Virus record (IMG/VR): IMGVR_UViG_3300035666_000007
Location: 1-64,000 of that record
Direction: 5' to 3' (one strand)
Origin: a virus
Length of the DNA: 64,000 nucleotides
Made by a program: the position numbers and the translations under genes. Below the pieces are notes generated by a model, which was not told where the DNA came from, did not search any database, and saw only the letters and a program-made list of their open reading frames with translations. Position 1 is the first letter of the stretch; the number at the start of each line of letters is the position of its first letter. Shown here piece by piece: positions 15,714 through 37,338 of the stretch.

Positions 15714-16128
15714 GCCTGACTTCCTTGCCTATCTTCGCCAGCACCACAGAATCGTTCCAGCCTTGCTCTCGATCATCGGGGCTTGATCCTTCCCAATGCT
15801 CTAGACGGAGCTTGCCTAGATCTGCAGCAGCTTTGAAGGCGGCGGCGAGTTTGACTTTGGGCGTCGAAAACCCAATGTCGTGGGCCTCCAGGACTTCCTC
15901 AGCGGTCAGTGAAAGTTCCATTGGCATCCAATGCGTCGGCGGATAGGCCCTGTCGTCGGTCTTGCTGGGACTAAGTAACCAAGAAGCCCAGTATGGGCGT
16001 GGCTTCGGCGCAAATCTGCAGTCGTCGTACCTGCCAGGGGCAATAGCGTACGAGTGAAGGCGATGGCCAGGCCGATACAGCAGGATGATTTTATCCTTCG
16101 GCGCTGTTTCAATCGGTTGCCAGTTCAT
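15649..16128 (-). CDS. DUF551-like protein
   Basis: 'WQPIETAPKD...PTHWMP'. Confidence 0.7.
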   Translation of the reverse strand: MNWQPIETAPKDKIILLYRPGHRLHSYAIAPGRYDDCRFAPKPRPYWASWLLSPSKTDDRAYPPTHWMPMELSLTAEEVLEAHDIGFSTPKVKLAAAFKAAADLGKLRLEHWEGSSPDDREQGWNDSVVLAKIGKEVRLNHCCSFFLSTYTPAPGKYMV

Positions 16129-16143
16129 TAGTGTGTTCCTCTA
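16126..16143 (-). repeat. Gene-junction motif A, copy 1 (TAGAGGAACACACTAATG); other copies at 17436, 18059, 18283, 20294, 36731
   Basis: Six near-identical copies, each between two minus-strand genes. Confidence 0.9.
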
Positions 16144-16350
16144 ATCAAGTGGAGTCAGGGATTGAATCACCAGTTGGCTAGCAATGGCGGGGCTGCCATC
16201 GTTATCTGCAATCTTTTGGCAAAGCTCAATAAGGAAGTTCCGAGACGAATAAGATGTCTCCATTTCAAAGATTCCACTGAAATAGCGCAGCTCGCCAGGG
16301 GCTTTCTGCATGAAAGCACAGTAGAAGTAAGAGCGCTTGGGATTGAACAT
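16141..16350 (-). CDS. Hypothetical protein; near-duplicate of 20309..20518
   Basis: MFNPKR.YFYCAFMQKAPGELRY.SG...IASQLVIQSLTPLD in both. Confidence 0.8.
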   Translation of the reverse strand: MFNPKRSYFYCAFMQKAPGELRYFSGIFEMETSYSSRNFLIELCQKIADNDGSPAIASQLVIQSLTPLD

Positions 16351-16357
16351 GAGTTGA

Positions 16358-16630
16358 TTAGCCTCCTTTGTTAACGGGAGATTGCAACGCTCGCCACTCT
16401 GCCCATGACGGATCGGCATCTTCGTCAGGCCAAAGGTCGCAACCATGACAGTCGTCCTTGTCGCCTGCGCAAAGGCAACGAGTTTCCGCTTCCTGCGGGG
16501 TCATGGCGCCGCATTCCTGACACGGCGGGAACTGGCGCAGGTAATACCAAATTTCGTCAGCCAGGGGATGATCGCCAGGCAGTGAAACGGCTAGTCGCTG
16601 GATCAGGTTGAGGGCGGCAGGATCACTCAT
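16358..16630 (-). CDS. Cys-rich hypothetical protein
   Basis: CxxC...CxC...CxxC. Confidence 0.55.
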   Translation of the reverse strand: MSDPAALNLIQRLAVSLPGDHPLADEIWYYLRQFPPCQECGAMTPQEAETRCLCAGDKDDCHGCDLWPDEDADPSWAEWRALQSPVNKGG

Positions 16631-16898
16631 GGATAGTCGATGGGTTGTAGGTCTTCTCGAAGATGTCGGGCTTGCACGGGTAGAACTCACCTTTTACGTC
16701 TTTGATGATCCAGTCGCCAGGGCTGGCGCGGTGGTCTCCTTCCAGTGTTGGGATAATCAAAGAGTTGTCCGCTGCGTAAATGGGTTTGCGATCCGAACCA
16801 CACTCAGACATCCAGAATGAAATGCGATCAACAGAGAAGGGCGATCCTTCAAACTGACGGGCTTCGATCCTGACGGGCTTCTTGGTAAAAAAAGGCAT
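16623..16898 (-). CDS. Conserved phage protein (PGDYG-like)
   Basis: 'KKPVRIEARQF...TLEGDHRASPGDWII...GEFYPCKPDIFEKTY'. Confidence 0.8.
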   Translation of the reverse strand: MPFFTKKPVRIEARQFEGSPFSVDRISFWMSECGSDRKPIYAADNSLIIPTLEGDHRASPGDWIIKDVKGEFYPCKPDIFEKTYNPSTIHE

Positions 16899-16901
16899 TG
16901 T

Positions 16902-17438
16902 TTAGATCTCCTCACTAGCGGGGGTATAAGCTGAAAGCATGGCCACCAGTTGCCTGGCTGACTGCCTGGCATCCATTAGGGGGTGATGAGCTGGCAGCTC
17001 GTCGGACAGTCGCTCTGTGGTAGCCAGCGGGTCAGTCCCCAGCGCCAACGCAACGCTGGCGAGATCGTGCAGCGGATACGGCCCTTGCCATTCGCGCTCG
17101 TGAGGGTTCATCCGAATGCAGGCACTGAGGAATCCGGTCTCTACGGGCCATGCACAGTCAGCCACCAGAACGGCTCCCTGATCGGCCCAGTGCCGCCACA
17201 CATGCCAGAAGGCGTTGCGGACGTGCTGTGGAGTAGGGCTGGTCCGGGCCAGCTCTGGCACGTTTGCAGCAACCCAGGCGCGGCTGTCCTCGGATCCCTT
17301 GCAGAGTGCCGGGTCGCAGGACAGCAGCCCTTCGTCAAGCCGTTCACCTTGGCGACTCACGACAACCCAGGCGGCTGCAAATCCTTCACCGTGGAGGCCA
17401 ATGCTCTCCACATCGAAAACCATGAACAGTTCAGTCAT
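16902..17438 (-). CDS. DEDDh 3'-5' exonuclease
   Basis: 'FDVES...' and 'HHPLMDARQS' catalytic motifs. Confidence 0.8.
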   Translation of the reverse strand: MTELFMVFDVESIGLHGEGFAAAWVVVSRQGERLDEGLLSCDPALCKGSEDSRAWVAANVPELARTSPTPQHVRNAFWHVWRHWADQGAVLVADCAWPVETGFLSACIRMNPHEREWQGPYPLHDLASVALALGTDPLATTERLSDELPAHHPLMDARQSARQLVAMLSAYTPASEEI

Positions 17439-17450
17439 TAGCGTGTTCCT

Positions 17451-17735
17451 CTAGAACAGGGTACATTGGTCTGGGTTTGGTGGAGAGATCGCGCCACGAC
17501 GCGCAATGCAGGCGTTGCCGGATGGATTCAGTTGTCTGCGAATCTCATCCCGCCAGATGCGGTAGGGGTGATAACGACGCTCCCCAAATGGGTACGCCTC
17601 AAGCAGTGCTCGACGCAGTGCTTTGGGGTCATCGGTGCCGACGCGGGCAATCACCTTGGCGATAATTGGTGCGGCGATCTTGCGCCAATAACTGGTGGAA
17701 TAGACGACGGCCATGGCCTTAGCCTTGCTCGCCAT
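17451..17735 (-). CDS. Hypothetical protein
   Basis: 'AYPFGERRYHPYRIWRDE' motif; stop lies in junction motif A. Confidence 0.65.
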   Translation of the reverse strand: MASKAKAMAVVYSTSYWRKIAAPIIAKVIARVGTDDPKALRRALLEAYPFGERRYHPYRIWRDEIRRQLNPSGNACIARRGAISPPNPDQCTLF

Positions 17736-18054
17736 CAGGTGTGCATCTACCAGCCCAAGCCCTGCGGGTATCGGCGTGAATACCTTCAACGTCGATCGAA
17801 TCGCAATCCGAAAAAGCGTGCATCAGTGCAGCATCTAGCAAGACGCCGGCCTTGTGCGGCGGCAATCGCAGATCGCAGATCACGCACTCCCACCAGCCTT
17901 GGTCCCATTGCGTGCAGACCTGGGCCCCTGCTCGCTGAAGTGGTTGGTTCCAAAGCATCAGTGCAGGATCGTCGTGGCATGGCTCGCGTTCTGAAGCGCG
18001 GGCTCGCATAGTTTCTTCGTGCAAACAGCATGGGCAGGCGATTGGTTGGGCCAT
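17719..18054 (-). CDS. Hypothetical protein with CxxC motifs
   Basis: Start preceded by junction motif A. Confidence 0.55.
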   Translation of the reverse strand: MAQPIACPCCLHEETMRARASEREPCHDDPALMLWNQPLQRAGAQVCTQWDQGWWECVICDLRLPPHKAGVLLDAALMHAFSDCDSIDVEGIHADTRRAWAGRCTPDGEQG

Positions 18055-18084
18055 GGTGATTAGTGTGTTCCTCTAGTAGGTCGG

Positions 18085-18285
18085 TTAAAGAAGTAAATCG
18101 TCAAGGTCTTTAATAAATTGCTGGACTTTTTTGTCAATAGGGGCAAATCCTTCGTCTACTTTTGTTCCGTCTGGGTAGTAGCTTGGCCAATATGTGTGGA
18201 GAATGCCGCGAAGCTCTCCCTTTGCTCGCTCCCAAGCCATCATCCGAATTGACGTGGCCAGGTTACGGTTTGAAACGTCGCCCAT
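18085..18285 (-). CDS. Hypothetical protein
   Basis: 'MAWERAKGELR'; flanked by junction motif A on both sides. Confidence 0.7.
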   Translation of the reverse strand: MGDVSNRNLATSIRMMAWERAKGELRGILHTYWPSYYPDGTKVDEGFAPIDKKVQQFIKDLDDLLL

Positions 18286-18584
18286 TAGTGTGTTCTCCTA
18301 AGAGATCGAGATAGACAGTTCAGCACTTCTAACTGCTCTGAGTTGAGCATTGCCTCCGTAATAGAGTGATCCATGTCCACGTATGCGAAAGGCCGACCGC
18401 GAACATTTCGGAAAGACAGCCACGAAGGTGGGCGAATGATCAGATCGTTACGGCCAAGGTCACTTGCGAGCCGTCGCGGGTAAGACAGGCAACTGTTGCG
18501 CCACACAAACGTCGCGCCCTGTGGAGCCGCAAGCATTTGGCGTGTTGTGCGGCCCGTTTGCCTGTCAGAGTGGTTTGGAATCAT
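18285..18584 (-). CDS. Hypothetical protein
   Basis: 'RQTGRTTRQMLAAP'; flanked by junction motifs B and A. Confidence 0.6.
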   Translation of the reverse strand: MIPNHSDRQTGRTTRQMLAAPQGATFVWRNSCLSYPRRLASDLGRNDLIIRPPSWLSFRNVRGRPFAYVDMDHSITEAMLNSEQLEVLNCLSRSLRRTH

Positions 18585-18587
18585 CTT

Positions 18588-19043
18588 TTAGCCTCCTTCA
18601 CTTGCAGGAATAACTTCTCCCATTTCCATTTCCGTAACAGTGCGGACTTGATGCCTGCGGATAATCAGCTTGTGCGGCCCATCTCTTGAGTAAACAGTCA
18701 GGTAGTGCATACCTTCCTGGCGCACTGCGCTTTGGTCGTTAGCCGATCCACCGGCAACCCATTCGCCGCTGGAATCTTGCAGCTCCCATTCGTAGTGCTC
18801 ATCCGTCTCATCAGCCGCAGCTCCCTTCGCTTCAGCCTGCGACTCAAGCCGCTCCACCACCTCAGGGTGCATGGAGGTATGGCGCTGGAGATAGGTAATC
18901 ATTAGGCGATGAGCCATTCCGGCATCTTCAATTAACTCGCCTCGGTAGTAAAACCCTTGGTCGTCAATGCGAATGACCTCCGAGATGGGTGAATCCCTAA
19001 AAATGATGAAATTATTTGACTGAGGCGGGATGAAATCGGTCAC
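18588..19043 (-). CDS. Two-module hypothetical protein
   Basis: 'EVIRIDDQGFYYRG' and 'YEWELQD...AGGSAND' modules; ends in junction motif B. Confidence 0.55.
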   Translation of the reverse strand: MTDFIPPQSNNFIIFRDSPISEVIRIDDQGFYYRGELIEDAGMAHRLMITYLQRHTSMHPEVVERLESQAEAKGAAADETDEHYEWELQDSSGEWVAGGSANDQSAVRQEGMHYLTVYSRDGPHKLIIRRHQVRTVTEMEMGEVIPASEGG

Positions 19044-19834
19044 GTTTGGAGGGGGATTGGTTGAGTGATCAAGACGAGCAATGCGGAAACGCATGTGGCG
19101 AGCCATTAGTCTACCAGCTAATTTGCAAATTATCCGCATTGCCCCTGCACGCAAGGCCTGGCGTTTGATGGCAAAACCACTGCTTGGAAAGATGCACCTG
19201 TTCTTCGGGGCCGGCAGTCCGAAGGGCTTCGCTGTAATCCAGGTAAAATCCACAAACCACAGCACAATCGTCACAGGCCTTGCCGCGAAGGGGGCGCGGC
19301 TGAATCGGGGTGCGCTGCTGAAGTGACTTCAACATTTCTTCAAGGCCGGAATCGGGATCAGCCAATTGATTAAAGCCCACTGCCAGGGTATGGATTGATT
19401 GGCCTTTTGCGGGTGTCATAAGGATGCTCGAAACAGGGGCTTGATGGCTGCTGGGACGCGGGAGGCAACGTGCATTCATAATGGAACGGTTCCCCTCCAA
19501 CCCAGGTCAGTCGATCGGACAATCCATGGCCGGCAATGGGTCGTCCACAATATTTACAGCGAATGGCTGAGCCTGTTGAAATGGTCATAGCGATGTGATT
19601 AACGATAGTTGTCAAGAGCGAACACGGGCGAGGTATGTAGGTCGCATCCGCCCGTGCTCGATACGCTGGGGGCAAAACCACGAGGCCACCCCGACTGAGG
19701 AGGCGTGCGGTTTTCGGGATGCTGGCACCAGCCGCCATCGCCACGTCCATCAGTTGGACGCAGGAGGCGAATGCAACTTCCGCATGTGGGCTCCCAGTTA
19801 GGATTCCGCCCACCGCTAACTCTATTATTCAAGT

Positions 19835-20296
19835 TCATCGGGCTTCCTTGCTGACAAGGTTGACGCTCTCTAGCTTAGCAGCAATTTGCTCAATCGCATC
19901 ATTATGTTTGTCAGCTCCGCAGTTACATTCATCACCTTCGCTGTCGTTGGCGCAGCCGTCTGGCGATTTCGGGCAGGAATACCAAGGGTCCTCGCATGAA
20001 TAGTGCTGGCGCCTAGCTAGGCGGACAAGTTCGGCTATTAACTCTTTCGCCCCTGGCTCGGGCTGGGCCTGGGTGACTCGCGCCTCTAGCGCCTCGACAT
20101 AGCGACGCACCTCCGTTTCCTCGGGATCACCAACGAAGTCCATGGCGAAGTCAAAGCACTCGGGGCGGGTTAGCGGCACCGGCTCGGGCTGGGATAGGAG
20201 GATGCGCATCTGGCTGATGACGCTCTCCATGTCGCAATCAGCATCCCAGAGTTCAACAGCAATGGCGCACAGGGCGCGGAAGTTAGTTTCGGTCAT
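19835..20296 (-). CDS. Mosaic 'FRALC...QPEP' protein
   Basis: N-terminus like 35365..36054; two QPEP linkers; Cys/His-rich C-terminus. Confidence 0.65.
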   Translation of the reverse strand: MTETNFRALCAIAVELWDADCDMESVISQMRILLSQPEPVPLTRPECFDFAMDFVGDPEETEVRRYVEALEARVTQAQPEPGAKELIAELVRLARRQHYSCEDPWYSCPKSPDGCANDSEGDECNCGADKHNDAIEQIAAKLESVNLVSKEAR

Positions 20297-20308
20297 TAGT
20301 GTGTTCCT

Positions 20309-20518
20309 CTAGTCAAGTGGAGTCAGGGATTGAATCACGAGTTGACTGGCAATACTTGAATCGAAATGCTTCTCCGCAATCTTTTCGCAAAGTTCATGAA
20401 GGAAATTGGGAGATGCGTGAGATGTTTCCATTTCAGTAATCCCACTCAGATAGCGAAGTTCGCCAGGGGCCTTCTGCATAAAGGCACAGTAGAAGTAAAA
20501 GCGCTTAGGATTAAACAT
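20309..20518 (-). CDS. Hypothetical protein; near-duplicate of 16141..16350
   Basis: Very similar 69-aa sequence. Confidence 0.8.
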   Translation of the reverse strand: MFNPKRFYFYCAFMQKAPGELRYLSGITEMETSHASPNFLHELCEKIAEKHFDSSIASQLVIQSLTPLD

Positions 20519-20525
20519 GGATTAA

Positions 20526-20909
20526 TTAGTCTCCTTCACTTGTGGATTGAGGTGCGGCGTTGCCGGTTGCGTTGCACCGCTGACAGTCTCGATAGCGAGT
20601 GCCGTCAGCCTTGCTCCATCCGGCCCAGACCTGTCCGGTTCCTTTGCAGTCCCAGCATTTGCCGGTTTCTGCTTCGTAAGCGGTGGCCCTGGCCTGAAGC
20701 TCAGCCTTGGTGACAATCAGCTTGCGCCCAAGCCCCTTGAATCGAGGCTGGCCCTTGCGCTTTCCTGAGCGATAAACGCCATCAGGAACATCACCTGTGA
20801 CGATTGAATCCCCACCGCAATCCTCCCAGCTGTAAGCCTTCCATCCTTCAATGCCGACCTTTGCCTCGGCTGCTTCCATGCAGTCGCTGATGCTGAACTT
20901 GTTTGGCAT
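20526..20909 (-). CDS. Protein with DnaJ-type CxxCxGxG zinc finger
   Basis: 'CWDCKGTG...CQRCNATG'. Confidence 0.65.
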   Translation of the reverse strand: MPNKFSISDCMEAAEAKVGIEGWKAYSWEDCGGDSIVTGDVPDGVYRSGKRKGQPRFKGLGRKLIVTKAELQARATAYEAETGKCWDCKGTGQVWAGWSKADGTRYRDCQRCNATGNAAPQSTSEGD

Positions 20910-21341
20910 CCTCTAGTCCTCCTGAGTTGTGCTGCTGCCACCATCCAGCTTGGCGGTGAGCACGCTTTTGAGGTCGCCACTGTTATAGTTGCGCCACCAC
21001 TGAGACAGCGCGTAATGCTCGATTGAATTTTCTGGAGCAATGCTGAGCACTCCATCTGCACTAATAGTTGCTTTCATTTGTTTAAGTCTCCTGGTTTGCA
21101 GTTGTGCCACCATCCAGCTCGGCGGCGATGGCGAAAAGTTTGCTCCGAAATGTGCGATTGATCACTTCAACAAAACCTTGAAGCTCTGGGTCGCAAAGAC
21201 CTACGGGCAGCGTTTCTGGTGCCACTCGATCAGCAGCAGCGCAGAGGGCGGCGGCGGCAGCCGAAGGTGCATGACACTGCTCAATGTCCAGCTTTTGCAG
21301 GACTGCATCCAAAACCGCCTACGCGGCTGGCGATAGCGCGC

Positions 21342-21989
21342 TCATCGGTCGGCCTCCTGGCGCAGTCGCTGAGCCCAGTACAGGCCGGAGCTATAATCGC
21401 CTTCCGATTCGATCTGCAACCACGCCGCCACCTCGATGAGCGCGGTAGATCCCACCCGCTCCACCAGCGAGCCGGCGGGGGCTGTTGTGCTGATGCAGAG
21501 CCGCTCATCTTCTGGCAGTGGAACAAACGCCTCGCGGTCGTTCGTCGCGTTGTAGGCGCCAAACACGGCGACCTGATCGAGTGGTGAGCCGGCGGGGGCG
21601 GGTGGGGAATCCTTGACGGTTGGCGTAGCGGACTCGGGTACCTCGTGACGCACTTCGCAACTGCACGACTTAGGGAAGCGGCAGCAGTGTGGGTTGTAAC
21701 CGCCTTCGTAGCAGTCGGGCCAGTTGGCAACGCACTCAGGATTGCGCTCCACCAGCGAGCTGGCGGGGGATGGGAACGCACTCGCGGGAACAACTCCCTG
21801 CAGCTCTCCCGCTTCGTTGTAAGCGCCGTACACGGGGGCACCATCGCGCCTACTGGCAGCCTCCAGCGCTTCGACCCGGGCGCGGAGTTCGAGGAGGCAG
21901 GTAGCAGTCAGCCACGGAATCTTGCCTTTTTCCTGGCAAAGCTCAACGACTTCCCACTGCTCCGGCGTGGCCTTGTGCTGTTCATTCAT
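21342..21989 (-). CDS. Mosaic hypothetical protein with repeated 'PAGSLVER' linker
   Basis: 'HKATPEQW...CLLELRARVEALE', three PA(G/S)S(L/P) repeats. Confidence 0.65.
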   Translation of the reverse strand: MNEQHKATPEQWEVVELCQEKGKIPWLTATCLLELRARVEALEAASRRDGAPVYGAYNEAGELQGVVPASAFPSPASSLVERNPECVANWPDCYEGGYNPHCCRFPKSCSCEVRHEVPESATPTVKDSPPAPAGSPLDQVAVFGAYNATNDREAFVPLPEDERLCISTTAPAGSLVERVGSTALIEVAAWLQIESEGDYSSGLYWAQRLRQEADR

Positions 21990-22289
21990 GGTGCCGTTGT
22001 GCGGGTGGACGATGTGCGGTGGTGATCACAGGCGAACTTCCGCTGCGACCAACGGAACAGAGGAGCCTCCCATGGTGAAGCGCTGACCGCACTCAACTCG
22101 CTCTACGGTCAACCCGGTTTGCTCTTGAAAACGAAAAATAGCCCCTTCAATTTCCTGTTCCAAACATTTTTTGGCATTTTGAGCTTCTTCGAGTTTCATG
22201 GCTTTGGATTGGGGCGAGAAATAAGATACGGTTTTGAGTGGGTCGATGACTGCCAGTGCTGCACTCAAGCAGCAGCATCAAGTCGAGAA

Positions 22290-22695
22290 TCAACTATTGG
22301 CTTGCCTGTTGACAGCGGAAGGTGATGGTCGCAAACCCAAAAGCCACTGCTCATGCGCGGTCAGCTTGGACAGGGCCGTCTCTCGCTGAAATGTCAGCGT
22401 GGCAATTGCCGTCTCCTTCTGGATGCGCTCTTCGTCTGCGGCCTGGTGATCACGCCACCAGATCTGCATGTCCAGGCTGAATTGTGAAACGTCTGCGCCC
22501 TGAAGTGCATTGCAAAGCTCGCCAACCAGCTGGTCGCCAAGTTCGCGGGTTGCCTTGCCGTAAACGCGAGGATGGTAGCCAAAGGCGTAGCGACGCTCAC
22601 ACGGCTTGCCAGCAATTTCGTCCAGCAAGCACGCAACCTTTGACAGCTCGCGCTCTAGAGACGTTGCTTCCAAGTAATCAGAATTGCAAGGCATG
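22290..22695 (-). CDS. Hypothetical protein
   Basis: 'MPCNSDYLE...WWRDHQAAD'. Confidence 0.6.
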
Positions 22696-23088
22696 GTGAT
22701 TGGTCGCAAAATGTGTGGACAAAGCTAGTTATTGCAGGGCGCCGTGCCGACGCGATTGGCGAAGTGATAAAAAGCGGAGGCGCTATCAGTCATTCAACCA
22801 ACCGATAAGTATGCCCATCAATCTCCACCGTTTCAGGTGGCAATTGCGAGCGGCGGGCGGCGCGGAGGTCAGCAATGAGATTCGGTGTTGCGCAGGCGAG
22901 GAATACCCCATGCGACCCTGTGATCAACCAGTGCTCTATTGCGTCGCGCTCCTGATCGGCGCTCCATCGGGCGGTGCGGTCTATCAAAAAGTCTTCGCGG
23001 CTAATGCCACTGTCGCGACATTGCGGGGCTTCTTTTCTCCATTGAGCGCGCAGCTCAGTGGATGGAATGATACTGTGCTGATCGCCCA

Positions 23089-23508
23089 TCAAACACCACC
23101 GATCTTGTTGATCACTTGATACAGGCTTGCCTGCAACTGCGACAGTGGCGCACTCAGGTGTAACTTGATTGCGCCAGCCATGGCGCTCAGCAGGCCGTCT
23201 TTCAAGGCGCCCTCAATCAATAACCTGACTTCATCCGGGTTGGCCGCGATCCATTCGTTAATGGCCTCTTTGACCATCGGATCAACGGCAGCCCTGACCA
23301 GGGTGACGAATGGAGCGGGGCCTTCGCTAACTTTGGAGCCGTAAGAGTTGTACTTGATTTCAGGACTCAGCAGGGATTCCTGAATCACCTTGTCAACCAG
23401 CTGCCTGGCTTCTTCTGCGGTCAGCAGCTCTCCAAGAGATTCCTTGACGCGTTCATACATGCGCTCCTGAAAAGAGGAGGCGGCAGCAATGGAAGTGGAT
23501 TCGGACAT
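23089..23508 (-). CDS. Hypothetical protein
   Basis: 139-aa helical ORF in operon. Confidence 0.6.
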   Translation of the reverse strand: MSESTSIAAASSFQERMYERVKESLGELLTAEEARQLVDKVIQESLLSPEIKYNSYGSKVSEGPAPFVTLVRAAVDPMVKEAINEWIAANPDEVRLLIEGALKDGLLSAMAGAIKLHLSAPLSQLQASLYQVINKIGGV

Positions 23509-24263
23509 GGCTCAAAAGGAACTGATGAGAGATGGAGGGAGGCGTGGCCGATCCGCCAATACCACGAATACAGCGAATCACCACGCCAAAACAGATAATT
23601 CTGCTACTGTATTAAACTGATGTTAATCGATTGATCATGCAGCATCCAAATGCTGTCGCCAACTGCGTCATCAAGAACGTGAAACCTAAGATCGTTTTCG
23701 AGGACGACGTAGTTTCCAATGTAATTGACGACTCTACTTTTTTCGCTTGCGAATGCTTCGTTAATGTAGACAACGTTAACCTGGCATCCGACTGGAGGCC
23801 TGCGGTCGCTCACTTTTCTTTGCCCCCGCTTTCTTGTTCGCCTTTGCCCAACGTCTTGAATAAGTGCATAGCAAAGGCAACATGGGTCATGATTGCATGG
23901 TCGCCAGGCAAGCGACCATAGCTGTCCATCCACCAGTGAATGAATTCACCCTTGGCAATTTCTTCGTTCATGTCAGGCATCTGCAAGGTTGCTTTCTGCG
24001 ACCACGGACCAGCGCTTTGATGCGCGATCGTAGACGATTGCTTTTTTGCGCTTAAGGCTTTTGAGCTGATTTTCGACAACAAAGAAAAAACCAACACTGT
24101 TGCTGCGCGAGTACCTAGTGGAGACGTACAAGAAAATGTCATCCATGTCGCCCAGACCCTCTGAGATGCCTCGAACGATCAACTGATCAATGATTTCTGT
24201 TTTGTGAATAGTATCGGATGGAAGTGTCATGATTGATTTGTGCTGAATTTCGACCGCATGAAA

Positions 24264-24677
24264 CTAGGCGCTTTCGAGAGCTTTTAACTGGGCCTCCAGC
24301 TCTTCCAGGGAAGCGGAGGCGAGGCCATCGCGCTTCTTGTTCTCGATGGCTTCGCGAAGTTGCTCGCGCTCCGCCGAGCGCTCAGCTGCTTTGACCTTTT
24401 CGCTGGCCTCCTCTTGACGAGTAGCGATTACGATTTTAAGAATTTCTAGCATAGCCTTAAGGTCGTCCCGACGGGGATTTTTTGACGTTTCAACAAAGCT
24501 CTCCTCTTCCAGCGATTTTAGTTCGTTGTTTACGGAAATAGCAATGTTGTTAACGCTAAAGCCCGAGCGAGAAACCAGGGGAATCTCCCAGAGCTGCTCA
24601 ACAACAAGGTCGCCGCGATCAGAGGGGAAGCGAAATTTTTTGCGAGTAGCGACAAGAAACAGGTTGACTTCAGACAT
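24264..24677 (-). CDS. Conserved phage coiled-coil protein, adjacent to 24711..26675
   Basis: 'ATRKKFRFPSDRGDLVVEQLWEIPL'. Confidence 0.75.
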   Translation of the reverse strand: MSEVNLFLVATRKKFRFPSDRGDLVVEQLWEIPLVSRSGFSVNNIAISVNNELKSLEEESFVETSKNPRRDDLKAMLEILKIVIATRQEEASEKVKAAERSAEREQLREAIENKKRDGLASASLEELEAQLKALESA

Positions 24678-24710
24678 GGCGGTAAATAAAAGTGTGTTCA
24701 GAGGTGATGA

Positions 24711-26716: not shown

Positions 26717-26745
26717 ATCGTACCACGCGGGACAAACGGTGTCAA
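26717..26745 (-). promoter_or_regulatory. Sigma70 promoter with extended -10
   Basis: TTGACA-N17-TACGAT with TG at -15/-14. Confidence 0.8.
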
Positions 26746-27020: not shown

Positions 27021-27248
27021 ATGAACACCGAAGCGAAGCCCGTGCGTGTAGGCGGCAAAAAGAAGTCCCCCTTGATCGTGAAGATCAGCCTCGATGAAGC
27101 TACCTCGCTCCGGTTGTTGACTTCCAAGCCGAACAGCATCCCAACCAGTGGCTTCTGCGCAATGATGATCGAATACGGCCTCAAGGCCTGGGAGAGAGTT
27201 GAGCAGGACATGGATGCCGAACTCTGTGCGCCCACTGGAGGGGACTGA
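27021..27248 (+). CDS. Small DNA-binding protein, possibly ribbon-helix-helix
   Basis: 'LIVKISLDEATSLRL...SGFCAMMIEYGL'; isolated plus-strand gene. Confidence 0.45.
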   Translation: MNTEAKPVRVGGKKKSPLIVKISLDEATSLRLLTSKPNSIPTSGFCAMMIEYGLKAWERVEQDMDAELCAPTGGD

Positions 27249-27284
27249 CCTCCGCCCCACCACGCCCCAAGGGGGCCGCCCGGC

Positions 27285-27890: not shown

Positions 27891-27894
27891 TGAT

Positions 27895-29319: not shown

Positions 29320-29401
29320 GGCAGCAGAGCGACGTAACGAACTGGGCTCAGGAAAGCGTATTGTGCGACTACCGCCACTGCAATACAGCAAAAACAATCT
29401 A

Positions 29402-30190
29402 TCACAGATTTAGCACAGCAGCTTGGTCATCGTCAAACTTACTTACAAGAGCGACGGCTGAGGGGCGCCCACCCCCCTGAAACTGCTGCCCCCAGGTCGG
29501 TGGCTTGTTTTTTTTGCCAAACTTCTTCCAGTTTGAATAGGTAATTGAAATCCATTTCTTTTCGCCAGCAGTGGATCTCTCAATCGCTTCTCGCAGCTGA
29601 GCCTTAACCTCATCGATTCCGCCATCTGGATCCCTCTCTATCCGAAGAAGGTTGTCAATCAGCCCATCAAACGCAACTTTTGCTTTTGACCCGCCTTTGT
29701 GGCTGTTGAAAAAGCTGCAAATTTGCGTATCAACAGCCTGAAGCTTGACTGGCACAATCGCATTGACGGCTGCGAACTTTTTGGGCGATCCAGTCGAGGC
29801 AGGGAGCCGTGGCGGAATAGGCGCCGGCTCGGAGCAGGGAGGAGGTGCCGTGGGAGCCGGGGCTTTCTCGACCTCCCAAAGCTTCAGCCTGTAGATATTT
29901 TCTGGGCGCCCGCCCTGGTTAAGTTTTACTGTTTTTTCGACAAGCCCTTTTTGTCGAAGCGAGGACACGCAGTCAGCGGCTGTCGCTCTTGAGATATTGG
30001 CGCAACTGCAAATAGCGTCATAGCACGGTTCGACAGAATCGCTACTTCCAGCACCGTCTGCAAAAAATTGCAAAGTGATCAAGACGCACAATTCGTTGTT
30101 ACTAAGCCAGCCACCTGGAGTCTCAAACTGCTTCCGAATAATCCAGTTCGGAATCGCCGTAAACGGATAACGGCTTTCAAAAACAGTCAT
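29402..30190 (-). CDS. Replication initiator-like HTH protein
   Basis: 'FTAIPNWI', HTH 'ISRATAADCVSSLRQKGLV...NIYRL'; directly upstream of dnaB. Confidence 0.7.
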   Translation of the reverse strand: MTVFESRYPFTAIPNWIIRKQFETPGGWLSNNELCVLITLQFFADGAGSSDSVEPCYDAICSCANISRATAADCVSSLRQKGLVEKTVKLNQGGRPENIYRLKLWEVEKAPAPTAPPPCSEPAPIPPRLPASTGSPKKFAAVNAIVPVKLQAVDTQICSFFNSHKGGSKAKVAFDGLIDNLLRIERDPDGGIDEVKAQLREAIERSTAGEKKWISITYSNWKKFGKKNKPPTWGQQFQGGGRPSAVALVSKFDDDQAAVLNL

Positions 30191-30375
30191 TTTCCACCTC
30201 GTGAATAAGCTTAAGTCCAAGCCTTGCGGCCTCAAGCTGCTGCTTTGAGAGTAAGTTGAATTTATTTTTATCGCCCTTACTGGCCGCTAAGATCTTGAGC
30301 ACCGCCAGGGAAGCTATTAGAGACGAAATCTCCTGCTCCTTCTCGGCCTGACCAGCGGTCATGATTGGGCGAATC

Positions 30376-30702
30376 TCAGATAGCCAAATCGCTACTCCAG
30401 TTGGGTCCGAATCTTCGCTCCAGCATTCCCGCGATGATTCGATTGATGTCACTCTCGGTCCTTTCGATAATTTTTCTGAACTTGCGATAAAGGTCAAATT
30501 CCTCCTTGTCCAAAAGGTCGATCTCTCGATGCAATTGATCCATTGCTGGCGAGCCCTCAATAGACTCGGTTGCCTTCATCAACAGTTTCTTTCTTTTTTC
30601 TTTAATTTCATCTGCTTTTTCTTTGTAAATTTCCCTTGCAGAAATTAGAGTCGATCTCGATCTGACAGCTCTTTCGAGATCCACGTAAACAGACTCATCC
30701 AT
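30376..30702 (-). CDS. Coiled-coil hypothetical protein
   Basis: Charged helical ORF. Confidence 0.55.
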   Translation of the reverse strand: MDESVYVDLERAVRSRSTLISAREIYKEKADEIKEKRKKLLMKATESIEGSPAMDQLHREIDLLDKEEFDLYRKFRKIIERTESDINRIIAGMLERRFGPNWSSDLAI

Positions 30703-30704
30703 TG

Positions 30705-31098
30705 CTATTCGTTTTTCGATTTCAACTTGAAAACATTGCAATGCCTCGCAAAAGAAGGGCCTTCTTCGAGAAGCTCTGGAAAGTCAAATTCACATTTCTT
30801 TTTTGTTCTCCATCGACGGAGACTGATTTGACCCAATACAGGCACCTGTAACAGCTGCTAGAGCCAGGCACGGCCCACTTGGCGGGTCGCGGAATCTCAG
30901 GGAGAACACTTTTGTAAGATTTTCCGATGAAAACATTTTGAACCGCCTGGCGACTGGAACCGAGGGTCCTGGCCTTTTCGTGACGCCGACCTTTGCGGTA
31001 AGAATCCATCGAATATTCTCCTCCGTAAACCTGCGATTACCGCCAGCCGTGGAAGGCTCGGGCCGCCTGTGCTCGGTTTTTTCGGATTGCCGGCTCAC
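30705..31098 (-). pseudogene. HTH plus Cys-cluster protein broken by two single-base frameshifts in A-runs
   Basis: Adding one A at 30975-30978 and one at 30799-30804 gives RRFTEENIRWIL..KKARTLGSSRQAV..CYRCLYW..KKCEFDFPELLEEGPSFARHCNVF. Confidence 0.65.
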
Positions 31099-31323
31099 TG
31101 AAAAATGCTTGCGCTGTAAACAAGGTTAGACACGTCGCCAAGTCAAAGCATTGAACCACCAAATCTTACCACCACAAGGACGGTTTGGCACTATGGGTCC
31201 CTGGCTTTGTGCCGCCGAAGACCACAGCAGCGTTACCGCCTCGATCCCTGGTCCTGGCTTCGTGGTGGGGCCTTCACGCCGCTTCTGTACTAATGCCGCG
31301 TAGTACAAGTGTCACAGCAGTCA

Positions 31324-32325
31324 TCACTGCCCCACTCCCCTGACATAGACAGGGCGATACCACTGAACGGACCTCTCCGAGCGCTTGGGACCGCGCAAGA
31401 CCGTGTGCCAGTGCCCTCGCCGCCAGTGGGCCCTGACGCCGCCAGGAGCCTCACCCTGTCGCTTCCCGGCTGGCTGATGACGCTGATAGTGAAAACTTTT
31501 GCCAATCCAGGTAGCCGGAAGTGGCTGCTTGGACAAGCTTTTTGTAAAACCAAGTCCTTTGGTAATAGAAACGGACTTATCAGTGGTAATCAATTCCGGC
31601 TCGTAAAGATGAACAAGAAGTGAATTGATGGCTACCCTTGCAAGCAAGTCGATCTCTTTCGGGCTCCCTTCCGCCTCTTTCTCCCCTTCTCCGTATCGAA
31701 CATTTTCGTCGTACCAACTTTTTGCTTTTTCGTCTACATAGTCAACCCATAGATAAGAGCCGGTTTCCGAAATCGTCGCAATTTCAATCCCCTTGGCCCC
31801 TTCGAGTTCCTTGGGAATTATCCTGCCCCCTGTTGATTTAGTGTATTTTTCCTGCTGCTCTCTTTCTGCTTGACTTAAGCTTGGATGTATTTGGCCAACC
31901 TTAACAACAAGAGCAATTACCTCTTCTCCATCTTTGTCAAACAGAAAATTTCGCGGTAGCAAGATATGGACAAACGGAAGAATGTCAAGAACATCTTTTG
32001 CTAGCACTGGTGTTGGGGTTTTTGTGAAGGCTTCGCAAAGTTCCTTGCTGATATATCGTGCCGGGGCGTCAGCGAGCAAGGCTTGGCGGCACACCTCACC
32101 AATGACACCTGATTGACAGTCTCCGTGCGCAAACGAAATCTGGGACATGTACTCGGTTCCTATTAGGGAAACCATTTTCAAGTAGTTGTCCCATTTGTAG
32201 TAACCAACAGGAGATCGATATTGACCAACTTTCGACAGGCAAATACTTTTGTATTCACCCGCCTCGCCAATGCCATCAAGAAGACTGCAAAGTGAATTTG
32301 ACAAGAGGACCCTCAGCTCCGTCAT
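31324..32325 (-). CDS. Hypothetical protein with C-terminal HWRRGHW motif
   Basis: 333-aa ORF, 'RAHWRRGHWH...WYRPVYV'. Confidence 0.7.
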   Translation of the reverse strand: MTELRVLLSNSLCSLLDGIGEAGEYKSICLSKVGQYRSPVGYYKWDNYLKMVSLIGTEYMSQISFAHGDCQSGVIGEVCRQALLADAPARYISKELCEAFTKTPTPVLAKDVLDILPFVHILLPRNFLFDKDGEEVIALVVKVGQIHPSLSQAEREQQEKYTKSTGGRIIPKELEGAKGIEIATISETGSYLWVDYVDEKAKSWYDENVRYGEGEKEAEGSPKEIDLLARVAINSLLVHLYEPELITTDKSVSITKGLGFTKSLSKQPLPATWIGKSFHYQRHQPAGKRQGEAPGGVRAHWRRGHWHTVLRGPKRSERSVQWYRPVYVRGVGQ

Positions 32326-32328
32326 CGT

Positions 32329-32916
32329 CTATTGCTCTGCTGCGTTTCTTGAGCCGTATCCAGACCTCGCGTTAGCGCCGTCCACCCAAGCAAGACAAGC
32401 AACTCGGCGAACATGCGACTCCTGATCCTCCCCGACAAGCGGCGATATTCCGCTTCCCTTGTTTTGCCACCAGCGCTCATACAATATACACAACTCTGCT
32501 GCCAGCCCCTGCGGCTCGGGACAAGAGAAGCCGATTTTGATATTTGTTTCAAATGGCACATCGCAGCCATTCCAAAGGTGTGGACCAAAGACGTTCATGA
32601 GGTAAAACATCTGCCACTTGCTCCAGCCGCCTGGTAGCTCTGCGGGTAAATCAATACCCTGAGAACGCAAAACATTGCGGCCTACCGGAGTTAGCCGAAC
32701 GTACACATAGCTATTGATGTTGAAATCAATCACTGGTTTTGCAGTGGGCCCTGCAGTGGCACGCTCGGCAGCCCAGGGCGTCCACCACGGCTGGCCAGGG
32801 ACGATCAGGGTGTGGTGCTGCCACCTCGCAGACCTGGGCACCTGCACCTCCCCATCGCCATTTGCATCCGCCTTTGTCGGCAGCCGGTCTGTGATCCATT
32901 CGCTTGTCATGTCCAT
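32329..32916 (-). CDS. Mosaic hypothetical protein
   Basis: 'WITDRLPT' module, 'FNINSYVYVRLT' module and PEPQ linker. Confidence 0.6.
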   Translation of the reverse strand: MDMTSEWITDRLPTKADANGDGEVQVPRSARWQHHTLIVPGQPWWTPWAAERATAGPTAKPVIDFNINSYVYVRLTPVGRNVLRSQGIDLPAELPGGWSKWQMFYLMNVFGPHLWNGCDVPFETNIKIGFSCPEPQGLAAELCILYERWWQNKGSGISPLVGEDQESHVRRVACLAWVDGANARSGYGSRNAAEQ

Positions 32917-32964
32917 TGGGGTATAAGTGAATGCCGGGATTCAATGGTCTCCCGGCGGGACGAA

Positions 32965-33636
32965 TTAGGCAGAAGCGGCGATCACCGCTTCTGGATCTGG
33001 AAAGCCAAATAGCGGCAAGAAGAAGAATGGCTGATTGTTTGCACGCATAGTAGCAGCGCCTTGAATCTCATTGGAGGCCCTGGCTGCTGCCCAGGCTGCT
33101 TCCCCGGCTGCTTCCCCGGCTGCTTCCCCGGCTGCTTCCCAGGCTGCTTCCCCGGCTGCTGCCCCGGCTGCTTCCCCGGCTGCTTCCCCGGCTGCCGCCC
33201 TGGCTGCTGCCCAGGCTGCTTCCCCGGCTGCTTCCCCGGCTGCCCAGGCTGTCGCACTGGCTGCTGTCCAGGCTGCTGCCCAGGCCGCTGCCGTCATACG
33301 ATCAAGATGCCGCCAAAATGCAAGGACCAGATGCGCCTGATCTCCTAAAACTTGCTTAGGACTGCGAATTACGCTAGAAGGCGCACCTTCCTGTCTGTCG
33401 TTGACAATGCGCAACAAAACCGAATGAGCGACACTGATGCCAAACAGTTCGGCGACTTTCCTATCAGCGGCAGCCTGATCAATCTTGCGCAATTCATCGA
33501 CGGTCATCCCGCTTAAAAAATTCAGCGCCTGACCTTGAGCGCACATGCAAGAGCCGTCGTCACTGACGAGACTTCCTTTGAAAGGAATATTTCCAGGCCA
33601 GTAATCAAGAAGTTCATCAACTGTGGATGGTGTCAT
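32965..33636 (-). CDS. Ala-rich repeat protein (AAWA/AAGE)
   Basis: Globular N-terminus, Ala-rich tetrapeptide repeats, 'EIQGA...FFFLPLFGF' end. Confidence 0.7.
   Translation of the reverse strand: MTPSTVDELLDYWPGNIPFKGSLVSDDGSCMCAQGQALNFLSGMTVDELRKIDQAAADRKVAELFGISVAHSVLLRIVNDRQEGAPSSVIRSPKQVLGDQAHLVLAFWRHLDRMTAAAWAAAWTAASATAWAAGEAAGEAAWAAARAAAGEAAGEAAGAAAGEAAWEAAGEAAGEAAGEAAWAAARASNEIQGAATMRANNQPFFFLPLFGFPDPEAVIAASA
33077..33290. repeat. 12-bp coding tandem repeat
   Basis: GGCTGCT(T/G)CCC(C/A) units. Confidence 0.95.
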
Positions 33637-33698
33637 CGAAAGATGCGAGGGTAAGTGGATGAAGCGGGTTGCCGGGTAGGCTCCGGCGGGCCAAGCTT

Positions 33699-34106
33699 TT
33701 ACTTCTCAATCTGCAGGGTCGGAACCGGCATTCCGCCTTCAGTCGGAACATAAATTGTCCGATTGCCTTTATCCGAACCTTCCTGCAAGCCAACAATATA
33801 AAGATATTGAAGGTAGCGAGGATTGTTTTCAAGGCTCCTGCCGATGATCTTATTCGCCTCGGCTACGCCATTTGCTCTTGCGATCTCAGCAGCTGCCTCA
33901 AAGCTCGCTGAATCCTTCTTGGCCTTTGCCTCAAGCACCTTTACCTGCCTGGTAGACTCGGCCTCCATTAAAGCCGCCTTTCCGCTAGTAGCGCGATAGT
34001 AAACATTTATCTGGGGGATAAGCCAAAAAACGCCCGCGACACACAGCAAAAGTGTCAAAACAACAATTGCGATCTTGCGAAAATCGTATTCGTGTGGAAA
34101 TTCCAT
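33699..34106 (-). CDS. Membrane protein, SPFH/band-7-like C-terminal coiled coil
   Basis: TM helix, then 'AEIARANGVAEANKIIGRSL...YLQYLYI...IYVPTEGG'. Confidence 0.7.
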   Translation of the reverse strand: MEFPHEYDFRKIAIVVLTLLLCVAGVFWLIPQINVYYRATSGKAALMEAESTRQVKVLEAKAKKDSASFEAAAEIARANGVAEANKIIGRSLENNPRYLQYLYIVGLQEGSDKGNRTIYVPTEGGMPVPTLQIEK

Positions 34107-35364
34107 GAGATTTAGAATAGATTAAAATTGTTAGAACTTGGCAAGCCGCGACTCTAGGACTGGCGACTTTCCATTTTTTGATAAGCAATAGCCAGTAGTT
34201 CGTTGACAGATAGAGAATCTGCATTGCGGAAGGGTTTGATGCCCTCCTCAAACGGAACAGACTGTACGCTACGGGCTTTGATCTCAACTGTCACTTCTGG
34301 CTGACGGGAGACCATCTCCGCAAACTCGCCCCCGTAACCCACAAACCCTGCAGTCGGCTGGTAAAAGGAGATTCCAGTTGCGTAGTAATCAGAAAGAAGC
34401 CAAAGATTCCGGTCTTTCTTGTCGTGAGCGAATTGCGGAAGGCTGATGGCCATTCGCTTGCCATCAGCAATAACAAAGCCTCTCTTGGCGAACAGGTCCA
34501 TCAGCTTTCCGTCAGCATCAGGATTTCAGACTGGTCATGCTTAAGCAATTCGGCTAGATCAGCCTTCGCCTTGGCAAGCATAAGCTCAAGCCTTTTGATT
34601 TCAAGAAGGCGATTTTTGATAATTTTCTTCACCTCGCTTTGCTCATCAGCCTCCAGCTCAAGCATCGCTTCTTGAAGCAACGCCTTGTTATCGCCTGACA
34701 GCTCAATATCAGTGAAAGTGGTTTTAAGGGCAATCATTGACTGTTGGGAATGATAGGGATCTGCCAAATTGGGTGCGGCTTTGGCGGGCCGCGTTATCTA
34801 CATGGCGGCCTTAAGATCAGGTGATATTCGCCTTGATGATCGAATGACATTGCTGCACGGTGAGTATATCCGGATCGGACTGAGACAGAGCAACATCAAG
34901 GGCCGCAATAGCGGATGACAGACGCGGACTCTTCCATCCCTGTCCGGGAGGCCCTTCGTCACAGTGACTTTCAGCGGCTTCGAGAATTACTTGCCACTGA
35001 TCGCTGGCCAGGGTGATCGTCTTGGTAGGGATGGTCATGGAAGGGGCTCCTGAGGCGCCGGCAACTCAACGCGCTCAACGGTGAGCATCTCGCCCTTGCG
35101 CTTGAACCGATAAAGTTGGCTTTCGTCAGGATTTGCAAAAGTCCGAAACAAGGCACCATTATACCTGACTCCATGAATCAGATAAGTATCGGTCCACACG
35201 TCGTAGTGGTTAGGACGAGAAAGAAAGTGGCCAAGCATTTCCCGTGGAAACAGCAAGGTACGCAAGCTCACTGCCCACCATGGCAATATACGGCCTTCGG
35301 GCACGTATTGATGAACCACTGAATTAAAAAGGTTAGAGCGAGATCGGAAAAAGTTCATGATAGC

Positions 35365-36054
35365 TCAAGAATTGTTTTGCGGCACCGGCAGGGCGTTGTG
35401 AGGAAGGGAGTGGGAGTCATGAACCGGCTCCTCATCGCGGTTGGGCGTGTCGAGGACCCATCTGCGCAGCGTCGCATTTGCAAGTCGGCACGGGATTTCC
35501 GCTGGTCGGTAGAGCCAACACCTCCCCTCCGCATCGCACCACCCCTCGCGCTCCCAGGGCCGTTCAGCGACCGGCACCGGCTGGATGGTGGGGCGGGCGT
35601 AGCGGGTGATGGCAGCCAGCAGTAGCTCACTCATCTCGCAATGGGCTGACTCCAGGCATCCTCCGGGCTTCAACCATGTGGCCCAGGGCTCCTTGCTATA
35701 CGCGAAGGCGATCAGGTTTACATGGTCCGGGCTCACCCCCTCCGGCTCGGGCTGGACGGTGGGGCGGCACCAGCGGGACTCCAGCAGATCGCCAGCGGCA
35801 ATCAGTAGTTGCTGCAGAGGGCTTCCTGGCTCAGCCTCAACCGCTGCTTCGTGGCAGCCGACAGCAACGGACGGGGGCCACTGCAATTCCCGCCCTTCAT
35901 CCGTCACCCCCTCCGGCTCGGGCTGGGCTAGCAAGGCGCGGGCGCGGTCTACCAAGGGAATCATGTTTTCATGCAGATCATCGGGGTTTGTTGATCTGCT
36001 CCAGACGAAGATTACCTCAGAGCACAAGGCGCGGTAGTCGTTTGGGGTAGTCAT
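35365..36054 (-). CDS. Mosaic 'YRALC...QPEPE' protein
   Basis: Two QPEPEGV linkers plus 'PTIQPVPVAERPWEREGWCDAEGRCW'. Confidence 0.65.
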   Translation of the reverse strand: MTTPNDYRALCSEVIFVWSRSTNPDDLHENMIPLVDRARALLAQPEPEGVTDEGRELQWPPSVAVGCHEAAVEAEPGSPLQQLLIAAGDLLESRWCRPTVQPEPEGVSPDHVNLIAFAYSKEPWATWLKPGGCLESAHCEMSELLLAAITRYARPTIQPVPVAERPWEREGWCDAEGRCWLYRPAEIPCRLANATLRRWVLDTPNRDEEPVHDSHSLPHNALPVPQNNS

Positions 36055-36079
36055 GATTCATCGGGGGTAGTTGTGGTCT

Positions 36080-36466
36080 CTAGAGGGGTGTCTGCTCGGA
36101 AAGTTTGGCCACCAGCCCTTCCGCGATTCGTATTCCAATTTTTGAGTCTTCGGCTTGAGCCTCTAAAATGGAGATTCTTCTTCGCTGCCTGGCAATAAAC
36201 GAATCTAGTGCCTCTTCCTTAGTGGGGCACGCATAACGCTTTCTGGCGTCCTTGAGAACAAATCTTTCATCCCCTGAGTAGGTTTTAATCCATGCCCCCT
36301 TGGGGGTGTGACGTGAAACCATAAAGTCTCGAACCTCGACTGCAACGCTGTGCCCCGGCAGTGGATCATCAAACTCATCAACTCCGTTGCTATAGCGGAC
36401 TATTTCGTATCTATACCACCGTTCATAACTGGTGTCCAGGTAGCCCGTCGAATAGCCGGTCATCAC
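36080..36466 (-). CDS. Hypothetical protein
   Basis: 'HTPKGAWI...RYACPTKEEALDSF'. Confidence 0.65.
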   Translation of the reverse strand: MMTGYSTGYLDTSYERWYRYEIVRYSNGVDEFDDPLPGHSVAVEVRDFMVSRHTPKGAWIKTYSGDERFVLKDARKRYACPTKEEALDSFIARQRRRISILEAQAEDSKIGIRIAEGLVAKLSEQTPL

Positions 36467-36745
36467 TTCAAGTTCTCCTCTCTAAGGGGTATTTGCGTAG
36501 ATAGCATCAGGGCGCACTTGACACCATGGATACCGGCGAGCACGTGCCTCAGGGAGAAGGTCGATGCAGCCGACTGACTCCAAGGGCCCCAGCTCTTGGA
36601 CGAACTGACCCGTTCCATCTTCGTTATCCCTTAACAGATAAAAGCTCCCAAGATCAAACTCATGTCTGTACCTATGACCTGGAGGGAAAAACGGACTGCT
36701 TGGATCGCGGAGTCGATTGTAATGCATAGCCATTAGTGTGTTCCT

Positions 36746-36958
36746 CTAGTGAAATTGATGCGGATAGCTTTCAGGGTCCAATGGGTTGCACCCTGGCGTA
36801 AAGAAAAATCCTTGCCCTTCGTCGCAGTCATCATCAACCTCTTCGTGCGTCTCGACCTTTTGGCTGTTGATAGCACCGCACGATTCGCACTCGGTATGGG
36901 TGAGCGCACTAAATGGACCACGCCAAGTCACAGTGCCGCCGCAATGAGAGCAATTCAT
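36746..36958 (-). CDS. Small zinc-ribbon protein
   Basis: CSHCGG...CESCGA; flanked by junction motifs B and A. Confidence 0.65.
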   Translation of the reverse strand: MNCSHCGGTVTWRGPFSALTHTECESCGAINSQKVETHEEVDDDCDEGQGFFFTPGCNPLDPESYPHQFH

Positions 36959-37338
36959 TAGTCTCCTTCACTTGTGTGTTGATTCAGCTCGGACATCGAA
37001 GATAAAGCGCACCATTAGCCCTCTTTGTTGGGAGAATCAGGAGTGCAAACAACCCACCTGTCGATCGACTCAGCTCGGTCGGCTTCGTCCAAAAGCCGAT
37101 CCCTGATCTCTCGCCTGGCCAGGTATTTCATCTTGGCCAAGTCGCCAGCGTTGCCGCTGGGAAACTCCTCCTCGGGAACGATGTGGTCAGCCAAGGCCCG
37201 GATCTCGGCAGCATTGCCCTTGGCAATCACATCTAAATCTCTAAGCCCCAGGTCCGTGGCCTTCGCATAGGCGTTAGCCATTATTCGCCATAGCGGTGTT
37301 CTCGGGAATGCCATTGAATCTCCTTGGTAGCGGTGGCT

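Follow-up and report, generated by a model that had tools for sequence, protein, structure and literature searches.

The DNA analysed here, called the window below, is the first 64 kb of the 98,034-bp virus record IMGVR_UViG_3300035666_000007 (IMG/VR), which carries direct terminal repeats and is rated complete; the phage is present in lake and freshwater metagenomes across several studies. Its genes from ~3 to 44 kb lie on the minus strand. At 16-21 kb and at 36-37.3 kb they are small, tightly packed and nearly all without family assignment, and a comparison of the genes flanking the elements described below with Pfam and PHROGs gave almost no family matches. At the gene junctions of these two clusters short sequences recur that combine stop codons, a Shine-Dalgarno (SD) element and a start codon. 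We refer to them as linkers, with A and B as the main motifs in this genome. A reading of the window from its letters only (the sequence-only reading) had proposed that they are standard crossover points, at which gene cassettes are inserted, deleted or swapped while staying translatable.

Recurrent stop/SD/start motifs at gene junctions

Motif A, the 18-mer TAGAGGAACACACTAATG (minus strand), is found exactly at 16126, 20294 and 36731, with one mismatch at 17436 and 18058 and with two mismatches at 18283. All copies are located on the coding strand, at gene junctions and within the two small-gene clusters. A motif scan confirmed the three exact sites, the one-mismatch site at 17436 and the variants near 18059 and 18283 named in the sequence-only reading; most of its coordinates hold, while 36956, 37013 and 18059 were off by 1-2 nt. 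Six copies at 0-2 mismatches compare with 0.03 expected from shuffled sequences, 0 of 100 shuffles reached six, and no further copy is present in the remainder of the complete genome. Motif B, CAAGTGAAGGAGRCTAA, has copies at 18588, 20526 and 36958 and looser relatives at 16358 and 37015. The mismatch spectrum of A is bimodal, with 3, 2, 1 and 0 sites at 0-3 mismatches and background level beyond, and that of B (2, 1, 0, 0 and 0 sites, then background) has the same form; A and B are therefore discrete repeats and not the upper tail of a preferred ribosome binding site. Logan contigs, i.e. assembled sequence, which were used for all comparisons with other samples (runs X2-X5), span five of the A sites in other lake samples with 0-2 differences, so that the A repeats are not assembly artefacts.

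Within A the order is TAG, GAGGA, an 8-nt spacer and ATG, with a TAA overlapping the ATG. The TAG lies in the frame of the ATG and the TAA in the next frame, hence an upstream open reading frame (ORF) is closed in two of three frames. The upstream ORF terminates within A at five of the six sites, at the TAG itself at 16126, 17436, 20294 and 36731. At 18283 gene 18285-18584 reads through the motif and stops at the TAA of TAATG, ending in -RRTH, and at 18058 the upstream 66-aa gene stops 10 nt ahead of the motif and the ATG sits 9 nt further on. Motif B contains TGA and TAA in two frames and AAGGAG, is followed by an ATG 0-10 nt downstream and encodes C-terminal tails such as -SEGD; an ungapped alignment of A and B has 14 matches in 20 positions. 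At all six A and all B copies, GAGGA or AAGGAG is found on the coding strand 4-12 nt ahead of an ATG. Variant junctions of the same plan occur elsewhere in the clusters, at 16896-16919, 20909, 21077 and 36463. The four genes reported as bracketed by B and A (16141-16350, 18285-18584, 20309-20518 and 36746-36958) are all real. The features are collected in the table; the 15-codon mini-ORF listed there, between two linkers, may be the remnant of a lost gene.

Folding of the six A sites with their flanks gave z-scores of -1.6 to +1.0 and no common stem, the motif being mostly unpaired. Between 14.5 and 22.5 kb two promoter-like and four terminator-like sites were found against 3.9 and 8.2 expected, respectively, and none of them lies on a junction motif.

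Table. Linkers and associated features, positions in the window.
Feature	Positions	Strand	Description
ERF-family single-strand annealing protein	10506..11399	-	PF04404, 43 bits, E 2.8e-12
Linker insertion site of the X4 strain	15919..15921	-	ORF 15649-16128 split into 77-aa (DUF551-like) and 90-aa genes
Linker A, exact	16126..16143	-	TAG closes 69-aa gene 16141-16350; ATG opens gene 15649-16128
69-aa gene, copy 1	16141..16350	-	duplicated along with SD of B and entire A
Loose B relative (SD + CTAA)	16358..16372	-	closes gene 16358-16630; serves 69-aa gene 16141-16350
B-type linker	16896..16919	-	tail -SEEI and stop of putative exonuclease; start of gene 16623-16898
Linker A, 1 mismatch	17436..17453	-	TAG closes gene 17451-17714; ATG opens 178-aa putative DEDD-type exonuclease 16902-17438
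Linker A' (A, then ..TCACC, then ATG)	18052..18075	-	opens gene 17719-18054
Linker A'', 2 mismatches	18283..18300	-	ATG opens 66-aa gene 18085-18285
Linker B	18588..18604	-	encodes tail -SEGG and stop of gene 18588-19274; contains SD for gene 18285-18584
Linker A, exact	20294..20311	-	TAG closes 69-aa paralogue 20309-20518; ATG opens gene 19835-20296
69-aa gene, copy 2	20309..20518	-	paralogue of copy 1
Linker B, exact	20526..20542	-	encodes tail -SEGD and stop of gene 20526-20909; contains SD for 69-aa gene 20309-20518
C-type junction	36052..36090	-	precedes gene 35365-36054
Linker A, exact	36731..36748	-	TAG closes 70-aa Cys-rich gene 36746-36958; ATG opens gene 36482-36733
Linker B, exact, TAATG overlap	36956..36974	-	opens gene 36746-36958; TGA closes 15-codon mini-ORF
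15-codon mini-ORF	36968..37015	-	between two B-type linkers; read from sequence
Loose B relative with TAATG	37013..37029	-	closes gene 37015-37314; opens mini-ORF

The genes joined by the motifs had been described as mostly unrelated. This is correct for most of them, the exception being 16141-16350 and 20309-20518, which are paralogues with 78% amino acid identity. Their DNA homology extends from the SD of B to one base past the ATG of A, with the final 60 nt nearly identical. Since the neighbouring genes of the two copies differ, one B-gene-A unit is present in two contexts. Among the other flanking genes, compared pairwise, 19835-20296 and 35365-36054 gave the only other match, which is weak, and a scan of viral sequences with the 69-aa protein found no relative. 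The six A copies of this genome probably reflect a local spread of one linker type, partly via the B-gene-A duplication. That two A and two B-type copies stem from a single duplicated gene also speaks for an account in which the motifs are a by-product of duplication and ordinary illegitimate recombination, with selection retaining joints at gene boundaries and the repeats having no role of their own. Against this, four of the six A copies have a paralogous flank on neither side.

The two clusters differ from the rest of the genome in composition. An SD is found upstream of 12 of the 16 genes within them and of 33 of the 147 genes elsewhere (75% inside, ~22% outside; genome G000), and the GC content of the 16-22-kb cluster, 0.53-0.58, is higher than about 0.45-0.50 elsewhere. 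As judged from this richness in SD and GC, the linker-cluster module may have come from GC-rich phages.

Linkers shared among phages and allelic at orthologous junctions

Searches of IMG/VR with a 16-mer of A returned 32 exact matches, 12 of them in contigs that encode proteins common to this phage group; the remaining 20, in contigs of low GC content that show no homology, may be chance matches. Five of the 12 contigs are genomes of 36-43 kb (four rated 100% complete, one 87%) with a GC content of 0.53-0.65. Each has one A copy, and their mutual nucleotide similarity is weak, covering 0-3.5 kb. Across phages, the genes downstream of A belong to at least 12 unrelated families, and those upstream of it to a similar number. 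When 66 pairs of A loci were compared, the exact match ran on for a median of 1 nt leftward and 0 nt rightward. Identity over the following 40 nt is 25-27%; three pairs remain homologous on one side and none on both. For an exact core to lie between flanks that are unrelated on either side, recombination must have taken place at the edges of the core. The 24-nt form of B is likewise found exactly, ahead of different genes, in another four related phages, represented by five IMG/VR contigs, of which two are identical over their overlap. Two more recurrent junction types were observed in relatives (designated here by G and L numbers), one with CTAGAGATTTCAACTAAT and one with GTAGAC..GCTCTAAT ahead of the ATG (L030, L037, G002:12350-12380 and G004:17870-17900), which suggests that the linker repertoire is larger than the types named here. 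GenBank phages gave only matches of 45-52 nt in Gordonia phages, located within gene 16623-16898 and unrelated to the motif.

At orthologous junctions A, B and two further types, B' and C, substitute for one another at equal length. The family of gene 20526-20909 ends in linker B in this genome and in A in L016. For a 53-aa family, Z, the terminal linker is A, B' or C in three phages (L027, L038 and L008). Gene 18085-18285 (66 aa) is flanked on either side by A-type linkers in this genome, but by B' and C in G004 and L038. Upstream of the family of 15649-16128, A is present here and in L037, an A variant in G004, B in L157 and a plain SD-CTAATG in L166. Because of such swaps at gene ends, unrelated proteins share tails that are encoded by the linker. 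For annotation this calls for caution, as -RGTH, -SEGD and -SEEI are common to unrelated proteins solely through linker coding.

These comparisons bear on the possibility that A and B are purely start-associated regulatory sequences, i.e. mRNA binding or ribosome-loading sites that would adjust how strongly certain early genes are translated, which are kept by selection and in which recombination is incidental. Several observations are in agreement with it. The spacer part ACACACTA is conserved equally to the SD, yet is unable to pair with the anti-SD. At the junction before the 15649-16128 family all 16 of 16 bases are kept between 16126 of this genome and L037, while the protein is 65% identical. 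In addition, all copies are on the coding strand directly ahead of an ATG and serve non-structural genes, as do the start-associated sequences (SAS) of cluster K mycobacteriophages (PMC3203893). That the motif is merely a preferred ribosome binding site, which the sequence-only reading would have concluded from an equal frequency before core genes, is not borne out, as no copy precedes a replication or structural gene. Against a purely regulatory role, the linker of orthologues varies between phages, being A in some and B, B' or a plain SD in others, hence no gene depends on one type; recombination at the edges of the 16-mer is still needed to place it, with random flanks, ahead of at least 12 unrelated families; homologues of RegA and RegB were searched for and not found; and a single copy per relative does not make a regulon. 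We therefore regard a purely regulatory role as unlikely, if far from negligible.

Gene gain, gene loss and homology breakpoints at linkers

Between relatives with 87-99% identity, single-gene indels and replacements terminate in linkers. L157 and L166 are 99% identical as far as the ATG of B and unrelated beyond it, and L157 has an additional gene of ~50 aa between two SD-CTAAT repeats. An additional gene of ~75 aa in L161, compared to G003, is bounded by an A-like linker and a B linker, which overlap by 22 nt in the alignment. In G002 an additional 108-aa gene precedes the 35365-36054 family and is bounded by direct repeats of the junction at 36054. L152, the only close fragment found in a metagenome scan, and the strain of run X5 show 96-98% identity across the putative exonuclease, and their divergence sets in within the B-type linker at its stop.

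A linker can also be present in one and absent from the other of two near-identical strains. The strain of run X4, with few other differences over ~1.4 kb, carries a 31-nt stop/SD/CTAAT linker of B type at 15919-15921, while in this genome the resulting 77-aa and 90-aa genes are fused in frame as one 159-aa ORF (15649-16128). As the orthologue of this part in L037 has 79 aa and terminates in a linker, the fused form is probably derived. Loss of a linker can thus fuse two genes, a further point to be considered in annotation.

Homology breakpoints were counted at gene junctions in eight genomes, with G009-G013 left out as too diverged from one another. Breakpoints fell on 8 of 10 linker junctions and on 24 of 217 others (P = 2.5e-6). 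After clustering of homologous junctions the counts were 7 of 9 and 21 of 125, and with only small, tightly packed genes considered they were 4 of 4 and 14 of 47 (P = 0.012). The idea of standard crossover points is borne out in three respects: other phages have the linkers between genes that are unrelated, indels and replacements terminate at them, and breakpoints are enriched there.

Two sets of candidate joints do not contribute to this picture. A joint of 20313 to 20521 in run X2 is explained by the B...A locus at 36.7 kb of the same genome, and the X5 joints 18052/18081, 20544 and 20904 were not counted, their sides being only 20-28 nt long. For X3-X5 the comparison extends over those regions that have contig cover.

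Several points weigh against a role of the linkers in recombination. The regular expressions that define linkers in the breakpoint test were set after inspection of the data, the test has small counts, and junctions homologous to each other are not entirely independent. Among G001-G004 most single-gene indels, at least eight, are found at ordinary starts, with repeats of 7-16 nt and without an A or B linker, so linkers are not required for shuffling. In a second sample, collected from a lake four years later, the contigs show no difference across three A sites, and no ongoing rearrangement is therefore visible; that shuffling may still go on in this phage itself is an inference. The relatives that were checked carry one A copy each, and the exactly kept junction shared with L037 could reflect a sequence-specific function rather than recombination.

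The indels of G001-G004 at ordinary starts, with their microhomology, also fit the by-product account, as does the divergence of L152 and X5 at a gene end, which is expected from selection alone. Random joints, however, would erode or hybridise the junction, whereas exact cores of 16-24 nt persist across otherwise dissimilar genomes, and the linkers fall into few discrete types of equal length. We consider it improbable that duplication and illegitimate joining account for the motifs by themselves.

Linker-bounded indels and replacements, allelic linker swaps and islands of identity are observed. Crossovers within shared sequence, combined with selection that keeps the stop/SD/start unit functional, best account for the kept core and the discrete types of equal length. 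Hence we favour, with fair but not high confidence, the reading that the motifs are portable gene-junction linkers for translational coupling that double as short-homology crossover points. In this model a linker of ~18-24 nt would supply the last codons and the stop of the gene ahead of it (two of three frames being closed), an SD, a fixed spacer and the next ATG. Judging from this anatomy, linkers most likely couple the translation of successive small accessory genes in a long operon. The types A, B, B' and C, recurring between genes and phages, would provide short stretches of identity, and recombination within them could add, remove or exchange a whole gene while the junction stays intact. 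The obvious candidate enzyme is the ERF annealing protein of the phage itself, as Erf-type recombinases are efficient on short and diverged homology (PMC3945230); its part in linker exchange is an inference.

A more specialised variant is that a dedicated sequence-specific factor, an unassigned protein or RNA, directs the exchange or copying of linker-bounded genes as an integrase-free cassette-exchange system. This would explain why few discrete linkers of equal length are kept exact across otherwise dissimilar phages, and we see only a small chance that it is correct.

Some further repeats were observed in the genome. The direct terminal repeat has ~120 nt (1-127 of the window and 97908-98034 of the genome, by 11-mers common to both ends). 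Repeats with a 12-nt period lie in frame within minus-strand genes at 12692-12745 and 33105-33235, and a similar array is present in the relative G003 at 30737-30950. A GC-rich repeat of 11-17 nt, GGCTCGGGCTGG (plus strand), which encodes QPEP-type peptides, is found within several minus-strand genes, at 13297-13470, 20055-20190 and 35739-35925.

Recombination functions and comparison with known systems

The sequence-only reading had suggested an integron-like array, possibly driven by the phage ERF and an exonuclease. ERF is indeed encoded. The 178-aa protein 16902-17438 taken as the exonuclease carries the motif FDVES at its N-terminal end, as is typical of DEDD 3'-5' exonucleases, and gave no Pfam or PHROG match; a partner nuclease of the YqaJ type was searched for and not found. 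Homologues of the 178-aa protein with 52-79% identity are present in many freshwater and soil contigs, and those from the viral scan, at 52-78% identity, have no A or B motif within 3-4 mismatches.

A related proposal is that the motifs are DNA sites for a sequence-specific protein, either a stoperator-like set of operators or the sites of an unrecognised site-specific recombinase, i.e. true integron-like cassettes. Like stoperators (PMC3203893), the sites are short, asymmetric, in one orientation at junctions and discrete in sequence, and the many phage proteins without family assignment leave room for an unknown enzyme. Yet no tyrosine recombinase (PF00589) was matched in the complete 98-kb genome, while 14 of 14 control genomes gave a match, and no serine recombinase was found in it either. 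The six A sites show no inverted repeat, hairpin or attC-like fold. Every site has SD, stop and start in working register, and the single copy in each of five fully checked relatives leaves no partner site. A DNA-site function is, in our view, very improbable.

Integron gene cassettes are bordered by attC sites, imperfect palindromes recognised as a folded bottom strand, and are moved by the IntI integrase. The clusters described here resemble them as one-way arrays of promoterless small genes with repeats at the borders of the cassettes. They differ in having neither an integrase nor attC-type palindromes, and the sites, of 18-24 nt, include the ribosome binding site and the start codon. The genome is without an integrase and the sites have neither an attC-like fold nor a promoter or terminator, so that a site-specific mechanism of the integron type finds no support.

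The origin of phage mosaicism is an old open question, and the field mostly favours random illegitimate joining followed by selection, conserved boundary sequences usually not being seen. The junctions described here provide a clear example from nature of the old 'linker' model for the shuffling of phage genes, which gains a concrete and testable substrate: short sequences, a candidate enzyme in ERF and natural before/after pairs. Linkers of this kind could also act as natural standard connectors in the construction of translationally coupled operons.

That this type of motif is undescribed, as had been supposed, is too strong, since there are close precedents in SAS (PMC3203893), lambdoid boundary sequences (PMC3233612) and the promoter early stem-loop elements (PeSLs) of T4-type phages (PMC2839356). 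SAS of cluster K mycobacteriophages, with the sequence GGGATAGGAGCCC, occur in 11-19 copies per genome and are associated with 17-bp inverted repeats, the extended SAS (ESAS) (Pope et al. 2011, PMC3203893). Both SAS and linker A are short, asymmetric conserved sequences with an SD core, a few nucleotides ahead of the ATG and in one orientation, which precede different families of non-structural genes only, sometimes contain the upstream stop and have conserved positions that are unable to pair with 16S rRNA. In contrast to SAS, A is unrelated in sequence and is present in six copies here and one per relative; no upstream inverted repeats of ESAS type were seen in our alignments and folds; and there are several interchangeable linker types here, with gene indels and replacements ending in them, which has not been reported for SAS. 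Because of the different sequence and the missing ESAS repeats, linker A is an analogue of SAS and not a member.

In lambdoid phages, short conserved boundary or linker sequences at gene boundaries flank mosaic segments and have been proposed in modular theory as targets of homologous recombination (PMC3233612). The linkers, too, are conserved at gene boundaries where the DNA on one side or on both is non-homologous between phages, and mosaic breakpoints and indels end in them (L157/L166, L161/G003, G002/this genome), in a small sample and with motifs defined post hoc. They differ in that each is a defined stop/SD/start unit containing stop codons in two frames, that they fall into few types of equal length, and that they are common to uncultured phages of freshwater whose DNA is otherwise almost entirely dissimilar. 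PeSLs (Arbiol et al. 2010, PMC2839356; PMC4122927) consist of sigma-70 promoters and terminator hairpins and act at the level of transcription. Like the linkers, they are small repeated expression signals between non-essential small genes of hyperplastic regions, where recombination inserts, deletes or replaces genes; the linkers, lacking promoter and terminator, would act, if at all, on translation within one transcript. The linkers are therefore distinct from SAS, boundary sequences and PeSLs each, though of a known kind.

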